Source: Escherichia phage RudolfBernhard_Bas96
Sequence record: PQ850623.1
Reading direction: 5' to 3' (one strand)
Length of the DNA: 64,000 bases
In this document: positions 32,875 through 36,530 of the stretch, in pieces
Layout: each line of letters starts with the position of its first letter
Numbering within the stretch: the stretch's first letter is position 1
The notes under the pieces: generated by a model
The model's input: only the letters and a program-made list of their open reading frames with translations
Databases searched by the model: none
Told to the model about the DNA's origin: nothing
Made by a program: the position numbers and the translations under genes

Positions 32875-33402
32875 CTATAGAATTATCCAGTCATCTGCTA
32901 ATACATCCGATTGGGATGGAACCCAAGGCATAAACTGGTCATCAGCAGTTTTGATGCCTAACCATGGGCGAGGCTTCAGTTCATCAGCAAATCTTGGACG
33001 TTCTAGACTACTGCTGTTCCATTCTTCAGCAGCAACGTACTCAATGTACATTCCCTTACCGTTCCAGCCTTTACGGGCTAGTTTGAAGCCTGCCTTAAGA
33101 ATCTCTATGGCATGACCAAACGTGCAGCCTTTGTCCACATCGTGGTATGCAGCTTCAAATGCAGCCCTCGGTGACCAGCTAATATAACCACGGAATTGCT
33201 CATGGTTAGGTTTAGAATCCGGGTATTCTACTAAGTAACCTACTTCTAATGGATCTTCATTAGCAGGCACATCCCATCCACGAAGTTTGCAATATGTTTC
33301 CTTGTTCATCCGGAATCCATTTACACACTTGGTTCCAATGTAGTTGGTGAAGTGAACTTTAATTTCTTCTGACGTAACTACCTCAAATGATAAAGCCCTC
33401 AC
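32875..33402 (-). CDS. DUF2829-like protein (Tad2-type candidate anti-Thoeris sponge) with N-terminal extension; start uncertain (track GTG 33402 or ATG 33308)
   Basis: C-terminal region FGHAIEILKAGFKLARKGWNGKGMYI...PWVPSQSDVLADDWII resembles the DUF2829 pattern as I remember it; family assignment is from memory only. Confidence 0.4.
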   Translation of the reverse strand: MRALSFEVVTSEEIKVHFTNYIGTKCVNGFRMNKETYCKLRGWDVPANEDPLEVGYLVEYPDSKPNHEQFRGYISWSPRAAFEAAYHDVDKGCTFGHAIEILKAGFKLARKGWNGKGMYIEYVAAEEWNSSSLERPRFADELKPRPWLGIKTADDQFMPWVPSQSDVLADDWIIL

Positions 33403-33493: not shown

Positions 33494-33874
33494 TTAAATG
33501 GTGCAACCACCACCATCACAGGTATTGTTTTCTGCAAAGGAAGCCAGAGCCTTAGCAGTCTCCTCTTTCTCATGCAGTGCCTGACGTAGCAGGTAACCCT
33601 CTATTTCCCAAATCTTATCGAATGCATTTTCATATGCATACTGACGGCCTTTCTGCTCATCATAGATGGCCGGGTCAACACAGGCAGATTCGCCTGTAAC
33701 TTTGAAGCCGTTTTCCAGGATGATAACACAGTAGGTTGTCAGGCCCAGGTTAGCCAAATCGTCTGCCGGAAGTGCAGAAGGGTTAACGAAGGCAGACTTT
33801 ACTGCATCAGCACCGTTGAAATAGTAGACGCTCTTAATCTTAGCTTCGATTGATTCTTTACTTACTGTTGCCAT
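33494..33874 (-). CDS. Hypothetical protein with Cys/Gly-rich C-terminus
   Basis: 126-aa ORF; GAGG RBS 8 nt upstream of ATG; no confident family assignment. Confidence 0.4.
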   Translation of the reverse strand: MATVSKESIEAKIKSVYYFNGADAVKSAFVNPSALPADDLANLGLTTYCVIILENGFKVTGESACVDPAIYDEQKGRQYAYENAFDKIWEIEGYLLRQALHEKEETAKALASFAENNTCDGGGCTI

Positions 33875-34043
33875 TATTAGCCTCGTAGAGTGGTTTGAGT
33901 TTGTATTTAAACATGACTGCGTTGTTATAGGCTACGCTACCTGCAAACACCAAAGACTTACGTCCTCGGTTATCCGTTACCTCATAGGCATACGGGGTTA
34001 AAATTAGGTCAATCATATAAATCGTCCAATGAGTAGTTCTCAA

Positions 34044-34082
34044 ATAAAAAAGTCCCCCAGAGTGACGGCTCTGAGGGACTTA
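34044..34082 (-). terminator. Strong rho-independent terminator on the minus strand closing the tRNA-like island
   Basis: Minus-strand hairpin AGTCCCTCAGAG-CCGTCA-CTCTGGGGGACT followed by TTTTTTATTT. Confidence 0.6.
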
Positions 34083-34326
34083 GTACTATTTACCCATAGC
34101 TGGGAGGCTTGTATGAACTTTATGAGTACCAGGTTCAGGTACGCTTAACTGGTGTGCTACTTGGATTGATAGTCCACTCATATCGCTCAGGCTAGGATTT
34201 AAGGAGTTCCTATTCTCCAGCGAAATTCCCGTCGAGGGGAATAACAATACATTAGCAGCCACTGGACTGTCTTACCAGTGTTGTCTTTAGAGTGCTATGC
34301 AATCAGGACTATGTTACTGCTGAATG

Positions 34327-34413
34327 GGTGTCCACTACTGGATTTGAACCAGTGACCCCAGACACCTTGTTCTCTCGAAGCTTTCCTGTGCTCTACCACT
34401 GAGCTAAGTGGAC
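34327..34413 (-). tRNA. tRNA-like gene; canonical acceptor, D and T arms but non-canonical expanded anticodon region; anticodon not assigned
   Basis: Minus-strand read: acceptor GTCCACT / AGTGGAC (7 bp), D-arm GCTC-AGTGGTA-GAGC, T-arm ACTGG-TTCAAAT-CCAGT, discriminator A; the 36 nt between D and T arms contain no 5-7-5 anticodon hairpin. Confidence 0.45.
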
Positions 34414-34912
34414 ATAATAGAATGAGCTGGGGCAGGATACCTACCCCATCCAACCAAGTTACTCTGTATCTGAAGAACTATATTAAGTAGTTCATTTTAC
34501 AGCAATAAGTAATTAGCTACTGCTTAACCAGGATGATTAGACGTGCTCATATTGGGTGAGTCATGCCAGGCTCTAACTGGCTCCTTCTTCGCAATCCTTA
34601 CATACCCCTACATAATTATTGCGTTAAGCTTTTTTGTTTAAGTTTAAGTGAAGGCGTTCTTGCTGACTCATAATTGGGTGGGCGTTTGACGAATGACTAG
34701 TTCGTTACTACCCGTTTGCCATAAGTACCTGGCGACTATGGTTTGAGATGGGAGTCCGAGTCCTGTACAGCCTTACCGTCTCCACATTGGCAGCGTATCT
34801 AGAATAGCACTTCCGGGTACGGATTTAACTGTTACATCTCAAATATGGTAGGGGCGTCCAGAGGTTTCATCTGGTACTTACGCCGTCGTATTTACGACTT
34901 ACCCCCATTGTT

Positions 34913-34990
34913 TGGTTGCAGGTGGAGGAGTTGAACCTCACTTCACATACAGATTGGGAAACCTGTAGCATAACCGTATGCTCACCCACA
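34913..34990 (-). tRNA. tRNA-like gene with encoded CCA; anticodon loop appears to be 8 nt (TTTCCCAA); possibly Gly-type; needs software confirmation
   Basis: Acceptor TGTGGGT / ACCTGCA (two G-U pairs), D-arm GCAT-ACGGTT-ATGC, T-arm TGAGG-TTCAACT-CCTCC, discriminator A + CCA; anticodon stem ACAGG / TCTGT leaves an 8-nt loop. Confidence 0.45.
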
Positions 34991-35033
34991 ATAATTCTTC
35001 CAATTCAGAGTAGCACTGTTGCAGTCGTCACTG

Positions 35034-35108
35034 CCCATAGGTGAGGACTCGAACCTCACAATACCGTATGGCTAACGTCGCTGAACCTTTTCGCGTTCTA
35101 TGCAGTGC
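35034..35108 (-). tRNA. tRNA-like element (T-arm TGAGG-TTCGAGT-CCTCA); full cloverleaf not resolved by hand
   Basis: Canonical T-arm signature (plus-strand GGACTCGAACC); acceptor pairing only partial (CATAG / CTATG). Confidence 0.3.
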
Positions 35109-35118
35109 TACTTTGAAT

Positions 35119-35200
35119 TGGTTACCAGTGAAGGATTCGAACCTCCGGTTGGAGTCTATAGCTTACCGCAGCAGCCCTCCAATCTAGCGGTGTCACACTT
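35119..35200 (-). tRNA. tRNA-like element with T-arm GGAGG-TTCGAAT-CCTTC and encoded CCA; 5' half not resolved
   Basis: Plus-strand GGATTCGAACC at 35133-35143; minus-strand 3' tail ...ACTGGTA-A-CCA; no matching 5' acceptor strand found by hand. Confidence 0.3.
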
Positions 35201-35244
35201 AGTCCAAACTTGAACATGCCAAGCCATCTCGTGCAACTGGTAAT

Positions 35245-35320
35245 TGGTTCCGGCGTCTGGACTCGAACCAGAACACTCATGCCGGGCACGACACTAGTAC
35301 CTACACCGGAATAGTTGCCA
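35245..35320 (-). tRNA. tRNA-like element with T-arm TCTGG-TTCGAGT-CCAGA, acceptor TCCGGTG / CGCCGGA and encoded CCA; D/anticodon region unusually short
   Basis: 7-bp acceptor pairing (one G-U) plus discriminator A + CCA; only ~31 nt between acceptor and T-stem, too short for canonical D and anticodon arms. Confidence 0.3.
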
Positions 35321-35371
35321 GGGATTCCACCTGGCTCTATCTGTTTTTATAGTCACTCAGATATTGTCTGG

Positions 35372-35450
35372 ACTTTGACCATCTGGGGATTCGAACCCTC
35401 ATCTCGGTGGCCAACCGTGCATTTGCCTCATGCTACTCTGGTCATAGTTG
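35372..35450 (-). tRNA. tRNA-like element (T-arm GGG-TTCGAAT-CCC); D-arm-like GCAT-GAGGCAA-ATGC present; boundaries uncertain
   Basis: Plus-strand GGGGATTCGAACCC at 35385-35398; D-arm-like hairpin on the minus-strand read; acceptor pairing incomplete. Confidence 0.3.
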
Positions 35451-36128
35451 GCCCCCGTTTCTAATACATGGACGGGGGAACTCCACGGTCGTTTGATAAT
35501 CAGGACGACTCACTCCTGACTGAGGTTACGCTGTTAGGCGACCATCAGATACGCTTCTTCGTTTGCATTTATGTTATTGGTTCGTTTCTAAAAAACCGCA
35601 TAATCGCTACGAAAACTATCGGAGAGTGTACTAACTCTGGGCCACGCTTTTGTGGACATCGGCCTACCTTCCACAGCTAATCAGCTAATACACTCACCGA
35701 TAGCCCGTAATAGGGGGGAGGGGACGAATCCTCCCTTTATACCCTATATTGCATGTAAGACCTAACAATTCGATGTTGTAGACGGATAGGCTTATGCTTA
35801 CCGGCATTAAACTCCCGCCCCCTTAGTGGGCTGGGTTAATTAGTATACTCAACATTGAGCAGTTAGTTTGATAAGGGATCTGAAGCCTTATCCCAAAGAT
35901 ACCAACCTTTGGGATATAGCCTAAGATTCAGAAATGGCCCCTATAGGAGAGGCCATTGATTAACCCGAATGTTGCTTTACATTTTCTGTGATAACCGGTT
36001 CTTAAAATAGTCTGTCTGACGGATGGGGGGCCACCCCTAGCGTCAGTGCCATACGGCAAAGATTAAGTTAAGAAAGGTTATGATAGGAGTTCCTATCTCA
36101 AAGGATTCTGACAGAACCCTTCACGATA

Positions 36129-36395
36129 TTAACTACTCTTTTTCAATGCTTCAACTTCGCCATCTTTATACCAAGCATATGGTATTAAGATTTTGCAGCC
36201 TTCTGAATCAATGTGGAATGCTTTGTTTACTTCAGCAGGTTCTCCACCCATGAAAGAACTAACCTTTCCATTGAGCCAGTGAATAGTAAATTTGTTCATA
36301 TTAACCCCGGTTGAACCAATGGACTGGGGAGAGTATTCCAATCCACTGGTTCGGTTGTTGTTATTCTGGCGGCTTGTCACCACCGTGTTTACCAC
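36129..36395 (-). CDS. Hypothetical protein
   Basis: 88-aa ORF; first minus-strand gene downstream of the RNA island. Confidence 0.35.
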   Translation of the reverse strand: MVNTVVTSRQNNNNRTSGLEYSPQSIGSTGVNMNKFTIHWLNGKVSSFMGGEPAEVNKAFHIDSEGCKILIPYAWYKDGEVEALKKSS

Positions 36396-36530
36396 TGCAT
36401 TTCCACAGGATAATGACAGTGATGATAAAAGCTATGTATGGAGCCGACACGTCTATAATCCTGACCAGTAGTAGCATCAGGACTATAAACACTACCACAC
36501 CTAGCAGCAGCTTCTGAGCCACCTACCAGA

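Follow-up and report, generated by a model that had tools for sequence, protein, structure and literature searches.

What does a phage encode in ∼2 kb of DNA that has no credible protein-coding frame? The question is raised by positions 34090 to 36128 of the DNA that we analyzed from Escherichia phage RudolfBernhard_Bas96 (PQ850623.1), a stretch of 64,000 nucleotides (nt) referred to in its entirety as the window. Sequence comparisons identified within this region, at 35620-35452 on the minus strand, an RNA derived from transfer-messenger RNA (tmRNA), with a UAAAU signal, a 10-codon frame lacking a start codon, a stop-codon helix, and two pseudoknots. Trans-translation is the main pathway of ribosome rescue and quality control in bacteria, and several phages depend on it. 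Our best reading is a joint one, which we infer with confidence evenly divided between acceptance and doubt. The region would be a leftward-transcribed island of RNA genes, comprising six non-decoding tRNA-shaped modules, other conserved structured modules, and the tmRNA-derived RNA; and that RNA would dock on the host's tmRNA, mask its template, and supply a phage tag instead.

The tag frame of the phage RNA (Table 1) has ten codons, as does the frame for ANDENYALAA in Escherichia coli tmRNA. The linker ahead of it agrees in length and in its A at position −4 with the E. coli linker AAAAAAUAGUC and A86, and A86 is the main determinant of reading frame in E. coli tmRNA (PMC2481249). With Rfam run permissively, the RNA matched tmRNA_permuted at 23.5 bits versus a gathering score of 47 (E = 0.037) and beta_tmRNA at 16.7 bits versus 84 (E = 0.018), and it falls under every Rfam tmRNA threshold. 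Both of these weak matches align on AUAAAUGCAAACGAAGAAGCGUAUCUGAUGGUCGCCUAA, i.e., AUAAAUGCAAACGA...GCCUAA, which is the template portion only, and the copy in an O26 prophage gave the same weak match.

To describe the family, we gathered ∼90 copies by a pattern scan of IMG/VR and from GenBank loci. These homologues encode ∼20 tags of the form A-N-[DE]-x-x-[YFV]-L-[AM]-[AV]-A, the commonest being ANDDVVLMAA, ANEEMYLAVA, ANDEQFLAVA, ANDNVFLAVA, ANEEAYLMVA, ANDDQFLAVA, ANEEVYLAVA, and ANDTQYLAVA. The tag frame occurs in 26 nucleotide versions, and we compared 25 distinct 10-codon versions. Codon 10 was alanine in all 25, spelled GCC, GCG, or GCT, and was followed by TAA, TAG, or TGA. Codon differences of a single nucleotide were synonymous or nonsynonymous in the ratio 432:346 in the tag frame but 9:907 and 188:645 in the other two; the synonymous bias was thus confined to the tag frame. 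Ahead of the resume codon, in the sequence UAAAU-GCA, the AAAU at −4 to −1 was invariant in 57 aligned sequences. An in-frame stop codon, usually UAG and eight codons upstream, preceded the frame with no intervening ATG, GTG, or TTG in 63 of 68 variants. We considered and rejected a gene for a small protein: an AUG frame other than the tag frame, MQTKKRI*, lies within the tag but lacks conservation, and there is no credible ORF (open reading frame). These comparisons demonstrate selection on the tag frame at the level of the peptide, which is evidence that the frame is decoded. The selected peptide has a hydrophobic/Ala C terminus, with its stop codon placed in helix 5.

A blastn search with positions 35370-35720 as the query found the core of the element (∼35612-35452) in 248 phage records, nearly always unannotated. 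Among the carriers were HK620, N4-like phages that infect E. coli and Klebsiella, siphoviruses of Salmonella and Klebsiella, Serratia Ackermannviridae, and phages of Aeromonas and Vibrio. The family also extends to other lambdoids and to 86- to 89-kb phages of E. coli, Salmonella, and Shigella. The core was also present in 99 of 5,426 complete E. coli genomes, at a site flanked by the genes for the Q antiterminator and the holin. In HK620 it is located between pR'/qut and the annotated late terminator tQ, within the ∼650-nt late leader; outside the lambdoids, the element is located in tRNA clusters. An nhmmer profile of the family gave a single match in the window (35618-35452, E = 6e−34) and none in N4, SPSP, or phiEco32, and a pattern scan of genome contigs for the family returned chance matches only. 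By these searches, the RNA belongs to a large unannotated family spread across many unrelated enterobacterial phages and prophages. In the literature we found no description of these tags, of phage "tmRNA-like" RNAs, or of RNAs antisense to tmRNA.

The structure downstream of the tag is supported by covariation. RNAalifold recovered the first stems of pseudoknots PK2 and PK3 (Table 1) with compensatory pairs (columns 155/174: GC 29, AU 21, CG 6). The second stem of PK2 varies as CCGA/UCGG, CCAG/CUGG, CCAA/UUGG, GUCG/CGAC, and CUCCA/UGGAG, and that of PK3 as GCCCG/UGGGC, GCCCUGA/UCAGGGC, CCCCC/GGGGG, and GCGGGAGG/UCUCCCGC, among others. The stop-codon helix also covaries (CUGAU..GUCAG or CUGG..CCAG). 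No pseudoknot is supported at the position of PK1, the pseudoknot that precedes the resume codon in E. coli tmRNA, and pairing of the 5' arm (Table 1) with its own RNA was no better than that of shuffled sequences. We rejected an internal PK1 on the grounds that pairing within the sequence is at the level of shuffles and that the variants do not compensate in register.

The phage RNA has no tRNA-like domain. In neither the window nor any of 12 family loci did ARAGORN call a tmRNA, yet it did call the permuted tmRNAs of two viral contigs, L022 (tag ANDSHFLQAANA) and L123 (ANDSTYLKAA). The acceptor piece of a two-piece tmRNA, with its T-arm, 3' acceptor strand, and CCA, upstream of a coding piece GGGG..GAUUCGAC, is carried by L022 and L123 but is missing from the window and from the family loci. 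In several siphoviral copies, a sigma-70-like promoter (TTGACA-17-TAnnnT) ends 6 to 9 nt ahead of GAUAGUUUUCG, so the RNA in these copies would begin there. The sequence 3' of PK3 varies even among close relatives, and accessory modules are often missing; thus, the conserved unit is the arm, linker, tag, stop-codon helix, PK2, and PK3, a total of ∼170 nt.

The 5' arm is what would connect the phage RNA to the host. The host reference was ssrA of E. coli K-12, in which nt 79-107 are unpaired in the accepted structure of the tmRNA. RNAduplex predicted that the window arm pairs with host nt 57-66, 68-79, 85-91, and 97-107 in 37 base pairs (bp), 2 of them G-U, at −40.2 kcal/mol; the duplexes predicted with host nt 57-107 have 37 to 41 bp. 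In the host tmRNA, the target stretch takes in the first six tag codons as well as the resume codon and the 3' half of PK1. Within it, arm block UAGUUUUCGU is matched to host ACGAAAACUA (tag codons 3 to 6), block GCGAUUAU to AUAGUCGC (−6 to +2 around the resume codon, G90), and block GCGGUUUUUUA to UAAAAAGCCGC (the 3' strand of PK1). Among 63 variants, mean energies were −32.1 kcal/mol for the arm with the host (nt 56-118), −16.1 for the arm with the homologous region of its own RNA, and −15.0 for shuffled arms with the host. The host was the better partner in 62 of the 63, and therefore the complementarity does not arise as a side effect of an internal PK1.

The reverse complement of the arm also gave a colinear alignment to ssrA 67-106. 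Alignment scores were 36 for the ANDEQFLAVA group, then 31, 28, 28, and 26, with HK620 at 23, the window at 21, and shuffles at 14 to 15 ± 2.1 (14.7 ± 2.1 in the comparison with the top score). Arm versions such as GCGACUUUGCGG, GCGAUUAUGCGG, GCGUCUAUUUU, and GCGAUUAUUUU are directed at a common host stretch in differing registers. Codons 3 to 6 of the phage tags are never the GAC GAA AAC UAC of the host, and self-pairing is thereby avoided. The end of the arm is 11 nt from the phage resume codon, and PK1 is likewise 11 nt from G90 in E. coli. L073, a divergent family member related to Alteromonas phage P24, has one U fewer, and its arm GUAAGUUUCGU complements gAC GAA ACU UAC. This arm scored −28.6 and −30.5 kcal/mol against natural tmRNAs encoding ANDETYALAA and ANDETYAVAA, respectively, versus −23.5 against E. 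coli tmRNA. A search for the host tmRNA of L073 with the exact predicted 18-mer gave 11 chance matches and no tmRNA in metagenomes, and a gapped pattern gave no tmRNA in IMG/VR. In all, the comparisons establish that the arm has extended complementarity to enterobacterial tmRNA, beyond chance and conserved across homologues, with the copy in the window being a weak one.

How these parts might work together is suggested by what is known of tmRNA. In E. coli, PK1 and the tag template can be replaced with function kept, the distance from PK1 to the resume codon is 11 nt, and base-pairing near the resume codon renders tmRNA inactive (PMC2481249). We propose that the 5' arm pairs with host tmRNA over the 3' half of PK1, the resume codon, and tag codons 1 to 6. 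This pairing would silence the host template and would also tether the phage template to the alanine-charged, SmpB-bound tRNA-like domain of the host. The phage resume codon would land 11 nt past the intermolecular helix, where PK1 normally puts G90; with the resume codon at this canonical spot, rescued ribosomes would add ANEEAYLMVA in place of ANDENYALAA. The outcome would be a two-piece tmRNA with one piece from the host and one from the phage, and the proteins so tagged would end in LMVA, LAVA, or LMAA, unlike the LAA recognized by ClpX. Extended to the family, the proposal is that many enterobacterial phages and prophages encode such a "tag-swap" RNA, a template-only tmRNA derivative that blocks the host tag and borrows the charged tRNA-like domain for a peptide of the phage's choosing. 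We advance this generalization tentatively and with more doubt than belief; a template-only tmRNA-related element would be of a new kind.

Several observations weigh against docking and tag exchange. The putative covariation between arm and host comes from one member, L073, and was scored on tmRNAs of the ANDETY type rather than on that of its own host. The arm in the window is the weakest of the family, and its score of 21 was equaled by 155 of 12,792 random 43-mers from the window (1.2%). In a sliding RNAduplex scan of the window with 43-nt segments, the arm ranked second of 15,990. (Duplex energy was discarded as a stand-alone statistic because GC-rich windows elsewhere in the phage score equally well.) The net gain computed by RNAcofold was −5.8 kcal/mol for the window RNA versus −3.0 ± 1.6 for shuffled arms, which is not significant; the gain was clear only in HK620 (−11.8) and in L018 (−16.0). 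Minimum-free-energy folding suggests that the arm may also pair weakly with the tag of its own RNA. Pairing at host nt 57-80 requires that PK1 be melted, and RNase III could instead cleave an extended duplex between the two RNAs. The IMG/VR pattern, moreover, fixed GCAAACGA and codon 7 (CTG), and therefore these positions carry no weight as evidence of conservation.

Other explanations account for some of the same evidence. The RNA might be purely an anti-tmRNA, either an antisense inhibitor or sponge or a decoy for factors that bind the template, with a tag frame that is never translated. The arm's complementarity to host tmRNA fits this explanation, a 40-bp duplex is a plausible substrate for RNase III, and pairing at the resume region inactivates tmRNA (PMC2481249). 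An antisense arm alone, however, requires neither a peptide conserved in one frame while its synonymous positions and stop codon turn over, nor a conserved A at −4 and an 11-nt spacing, nor two covarying pseudoknots downstream, and because of these features we consider an antisense-only function unlikely. Natural two-piece tmRNAs exist, phages included, and modules with T-arms and CCA ends adjoin the RNA, so the phage might supply a complete two-piece tmRNA of its own, in which the acceptor piece is a charged neighboring module (e.g., 35444-35376 or 34991-34913, the latter having an acceptor stem with a G-U pair close to its top). This we find improbable: no tRNA-like module consistently accompanies the template RNA, the 3' flank of PK3 varies, modules A and B (Table 1 and below) are absent in about one-third of copies, no complementarity was found that would join the RNA to any module, and the match of the arm to host tmRNA would be left unexplained.

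Two further explanations deny the RNA any such function. Gene finders fail on almost all of the modules, and the modules are shuffled among relatives, as would be the case if the locus were a decaying relic, a functionless graveyard of tRNA and tmRNA gene fragments whose likeness to tmRNA is historical. Yet phage families that are unrelated to one another have the element in noncoding DNA with 75 to 90% conservation, compensatory changes occur in both pseudoknots, selection acts at the level of codons, and complementarity of the arm has been retained to the host while being lost to its own sequence; we regard a relic as very improbable. The remaining explanation, an ordinary tRNA cluster with unconserved spacer, was the outcome that a preliminary description of the region, made from the sequence alone, had named as its own refutation. 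N4-like relatives do hold canonical tRNAs in this island (Asn, Ser, Thr, and Pro in SPSP; Ile in E20, PBM-3, and ST4). There is no canonical tRNA in the window, however, and the non-tRNA sequence is structured and conserved: identity across Gamaleyavirus is 93 to 99% in both the ∼500-nt "gap" and the upstream part of ∼670 nt, and portions of these recur in unrelated phages. A simple tRNA cluster is therefore already contradicted and hardly credible. In our judgment, the antisense-only, phage-only two-piece, and relic explanations each fit the combined features less well than do docking on host tmRNA and exchange of the tag.

The phage RNA resembles several known systems without being identical to any. 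With one-piece bacterial tmRNA (SsrA; RF00023, clan CL00001) it shares the A at −4, a start-less 10-codon frame that begins with Ala-Asn-Asp/Glu and ends with Ala, a stop codon inside a helix, downstream pseudoknots, and 11 nt from a structured element to the resume codon. It differs in having no acceptor stem, T-arm, CCA, or P2 helix, in having at the position of PK1 an antisense to host tmRNA, and in tags that end in LMVA, LAVA, or LMAA where the tmRNA tag ends in ALAA. The template region (..UAAAUGCAAACGA..) is most like those of two-piece permuted and beta-proteobacterial tmRNAs. L022 (IMGVR_UViG_3300049182_000044, 281 kb) and L123 are viral contigs with canonical circularly permuted tmRNA genes, and in the template region these stand closest to the family among canonical relatives. 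In two-piece permuted tmRNAs, which occur in alpha- and beta-proteobacteria, cyanobacteria, and some phages (e.g., L022 and L123), function is split over two base-paired chains, as we propose here. In those, however, one gene makes both pieces and the coding piece holds the 5' acceptor strand, whereas here no acceptor piece is encoded and the proposed partner is the intact tmRNA of the host, caught by antisense pairing.

Phage-encoded tmRNAs are known from the Bxz1 group of mycobacteriophages and from Bacillus phage G. In an exhaustive survey of ssrA published in 2014, phage tmRNAs were listed only for mycobacteriophages and Bacillus phage G, and for no enterobacterial phage. Mycobacteriophage DS6A has a gene for the tRNA-like domain only (PMC4131195); whereas DS6A keeps the tRNA-like half alone, the family described here keeps the template half. 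Trans-encoded antisense small RNAs (sRNAs), as well as the anti-sRNAs or sponges of prophages, share with the phage RNA an imperfect extended duplex with a host RNA and a single-stranded seed, both of which are predictions here; the arm of the phage RNA differs in being fused to a translatable template and pseudoknots. We know of no report of tmRNA as the target of an sRNA or sponge. The tRNA clusters of N4-like and T5-like phages have T-arms, acceptor stems, and CCA ends in common with the modules in the window, which differ in lacking 7-nt anticodon loops. Bacterial Y RNAs (YrlA), GOLLD, and ROOL likewise have T-arm modules closed by long stems and adjoin phage tRNA genes, but the window RNAs have no Rfam match to them.

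If the proposal is true, it describes a new route of viral takeover, in which a ribozyme-like host RNA is reprogrammed in trans. The phage RNA would be the first natural template-only derivative of tmRNA and the first natural antisense partner of tmRNA, and the complex would be a natural tmRNA built from two genomes. The fate of every trans-translated protein would be altered during infection, and constitutive expression from pR' would be possible in lambdoid lysogens. The proposal would also account for conserved "junk" that hundreds of sequenced phages carry in their tRNA islands and for conserved sequence in the late-operon leader of HK620-type prophages, which are found in ∼2% of complete E. 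coli genomes. Even without tag swapping, this is a widespread, structured, and unannotated phage RNA with a selected short reading frame.

Table 1 Features of the RNA island, by position in the window
Feature	Coordinates	Strand	Description and basis
5' arm	35578..35620	-	43 nt, GAUAGUUUUCGUAGCGAUUAUGCGGUUUUUUAGAAACGAACCA; antisense to E. coli tmRNA nt 57-107
Linker	35567..35577	-	Single-stranded, 11 nt, AUAACAUAAAU; U at −5 and A at −4 ahead of the resume codon
Tag reading frame	35534..35566	-	GCA AAC GAA GAA GCG UAU CUG AUG GUC GCC UAA, ANEEAYLMVA*; no start codon
PK2	35488..35520	-	H-type pseudoknot, GUCAGG..GUCG..CCUGAU..CGAC; compensatory variants in both stems, 57 sequences
PK3	35452..35486	-	H-type pseudoknot, GUGGA..CCCCCG..UCCAU..ACGGGGG; compensatory variants in both stems; stem 2 in ∼19 forms
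Module A	35621..35698	-	Long hairpin with internal pseudoknot-like insert, directly adjoining the 5' arm; predicted fold
Upstream noncoding module	35700..35838	-	76 to 81% identity to phiEco32-like kuraviruses
tRNA-like module 1	35376..35444	-	Cloverleaf-like fold without CCA; "anticodon" loop of 5 nt, weak T stem; missed by both Rfam and default ARAGORN
Two-hairpin module	35313..35375	-	∼60 nt (..CAGACAAUAUCUG..GCCAGGUGGAAUCCCUGGC..); blastn
tRNA-like module 2	35245..35311	-	7-bp acceptor stem, T-arm, ACCA; no anticodon arm
tRNA-like module 3	35119..35243	-	125 nt; acceptor stem UACCAGU/ACUGGUA, T-arm, ACCA, extra arms
tRNA-like module 4	35009..35112	-	Long closing stem enclosing a T-arm
tRNA-like module 5	34913..34991	-	Shaped like tRNA-Sec: 9-bp acceptor stem, 6-bp D stem, 7-bp "anticodon" stem, 4-nt loop, CCA
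102-nt module	34742..34843	-	9-bp closing helix UUUGAGAUG/CAUCUCAAA; fold and blastn
tRNA-like module 6	34326..34413	-	T-arm and acceptor stem as in tRNA-Ile of relatives; a single arm, extended by 13 nt, in place of the D and anticodon arms
Intrinsic terminator	34042..34081	-	Closes the island; 13-bp stem, then T-run, TTTTTATTT at 34081-34050

The island itself was recognized in the preliminary description as an ORF-free stretch that contains at least six minus-strand T-arm signatures and ends in a strong minus-strand terminator, and our analysis upheld all three points. The longest ORFs inside 34090-36128 in six frames encode 70 amino acids (35468-35680, plus strand), 58, and 55 amino acids. 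The flanking genes, at 33858-34043 and 36129-36395, are both on the minus strand, and therefore the island is read on that strand. The terminator has a 13-bp stem and T-run at 34081-34050. The motif GGAYTYGAACC occurs exactly at 34340, 35045, 35133, 35259, and 35387 (one position past the 35386 given originally) and with one mismatch at 34927, and all six are on a single strand. The full window has 10 occurrences of the motif versus 2.65 expected, and none of 100 shuffles reached 10. Covariation and conservation across phages bore out the view that the non-tRNA parts of the island hold structured RNAs. The suggestion that they include introns found no support: with Rfam run on 33800-36500 at E ≤ 10, there was no match to group I or other introns or to the Y RNA, GOLLD, and ROOL families. 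The upstream ∼670 nt (35460-36128), which had been called structured-looking, are indeed structured, mostly by virtue of the tmRNA-derived RNA, which had been missed.

By blastn, the window belongs to Gamaleyavirus, which comprises the G7C-like coliphages of the N4 type within the Schitoviridae; nearest to it are the records of E20, KKP 3715, PhAPEC5/7, and PBM-3, with 89 to 94% identity over the region. In phage N4, the equivalent island is a 1.5-kb gap from gp47 to gp48. The tRNA clusters of N4-like phages have the same genomic position and strand as this island, with tRNAs annotated as Asn, Ser, Thr, "Undet," and Pro in SPSP and as Ile, Thr/"OTHER," and Cys in PBM-3, E20, and ST4. In E20, PBM-3, and ST4 (L001-L003, ∼1897-1978), a tRNA with an 8- to 9-nt anticodon loop adjoins tRNA-Ile and has no counterpart in the window; ARAGORN labels it "tRNA-???" and gives its anticodon as "ac"; in the records it is called Thr or OTHER.

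The preliminary description spoke of tRNA-type T-arm signatures, but a reading of the six as six tRNAs was not supported. ARAGORN in its default mode found no tRNA and no tmRNA in the whole window; canonical tRNAs were also sought with its intron, low-threshold, and mitochondrial settings, which gave low-scoring or odd calls only. In gathering mode, Rfam reported one tRNA (RF00005; 34329-34413, 54.4 bits), in which a 24-nt insert replaces the 11-nt anticodon region, and it did not report RF00005 for the remaining five T-arm modules even at E ≤ 10. These five have multibranched folds with an acceptor-like closing stem, and their "anticodon" loops are 4 to 5 nt or missing. Modules 2, 3, and 5 among them have a CCA end, which is ACCA in two. 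Lacking 7-nt anticodon loops, the window modules are therefore unable to decode. A blastn search found no similarity to E. coli tRNA genes, and an origin from host tRNAs was discarded. As a speculation, the modules could be processing signals or decoys for enzymes that work on acceptor or CCA ends.

Individual modules have relatives of their own. The homologue of module 2 in N4-like phages is annotated "tRNA-Undet." In Klebsiella phage KP8, module 3 is directly 3' of PK3 and is partly annotated tRNA-OTHER. Module 5 scored 31.7 bits as Rfam tRNA-Sec, under the gathering score of 47, and occurs only in E20 and one Klebsiella phage record. Trimmed to a 7-bp stem, it would read G1-C72, U2-G71, and G3-U70, which raises the question of charging by alanyl-tRNA synthetase. 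The acceptor stem and T-arm of module 6 are part of a normal tRNA-Ile(AAU) in E20, PBM-3, and ST4; in module 6, CAGGAAAGCUUCGAGAGAACAAGGUGUCUG stands in place of the D and anticodon arms, and a nearly identical arm is found in a tRNA-shaped module of HK620-type prophages. Complementarity between the 5' motif and the extended arm of module 6 was unconvincing by eye.

Of the modules without T-arm signatures, module A has a covarying 12-bp helix, which reads GGUGAGUGUAUU/AGUACACUCUCC here and GGUAAGAGCAUU/AGUGCUCUUUCC in copies from lambdoids and siphoviruses, with a U-U mismatch kept. The module recurs on one or both sides of the tmRNA-derived RNA in copies of the N4-like, lambdoid, and siphoviral types (also in L004-L006, L010, L016, and L018). 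Its insert varies and in L018 contains a T-arm. Module B, which is tRNA-shaped with an acceptor-like stem UGUGGUG/CACCACA, lies ∼215 to 310 nt past the tag in L004 and L006 (HK620) and is also present in L010. Its D-like and T-like hairpins have mutually complementary loops (GCUGAU with AUCAGC, or with GUUAGC in L010), suggestive of a loop-loop kiss imitating the tRNA elbow, and the HK620 copy has an extended central arm in common with window positions 34326-34413. Neither A nor B was accepted as a hidden tRNA-like domain: they are not universal, and they have no G3-U70 and no consistent CCA.

The two-hairpin module had blastn matches in kuraviruses, 40- to 60-kb Klebsiella phages, Shigella phage DS8, and 11 E. 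coli genomes, noncoding throughout. The 102-nt module is 91% identical to N4 33226-33324 and 79 to 82% identical to sequences in 150-kb myoviruses of Enterobacter, Pantoea, and Pectobacterium, in one record of which the counterpart is annotated as a hypothetical protein. The counterpart of the upstream noncoding module in phiEco32 (64804-64930; L132) lies within a 290-nt intergenic gap and has the hairpin GGGAGG-AUUCGUC-CCCUCCC. Finally, positions 71184-73023 of OY979416.1 (Klebsiella phage vB_Kpl_K57alpha1.2) are 92 to 96% identical to the ORF-free island yet are annotated "tail spike protein" and "virion structural protein," which is probably a misannotation.

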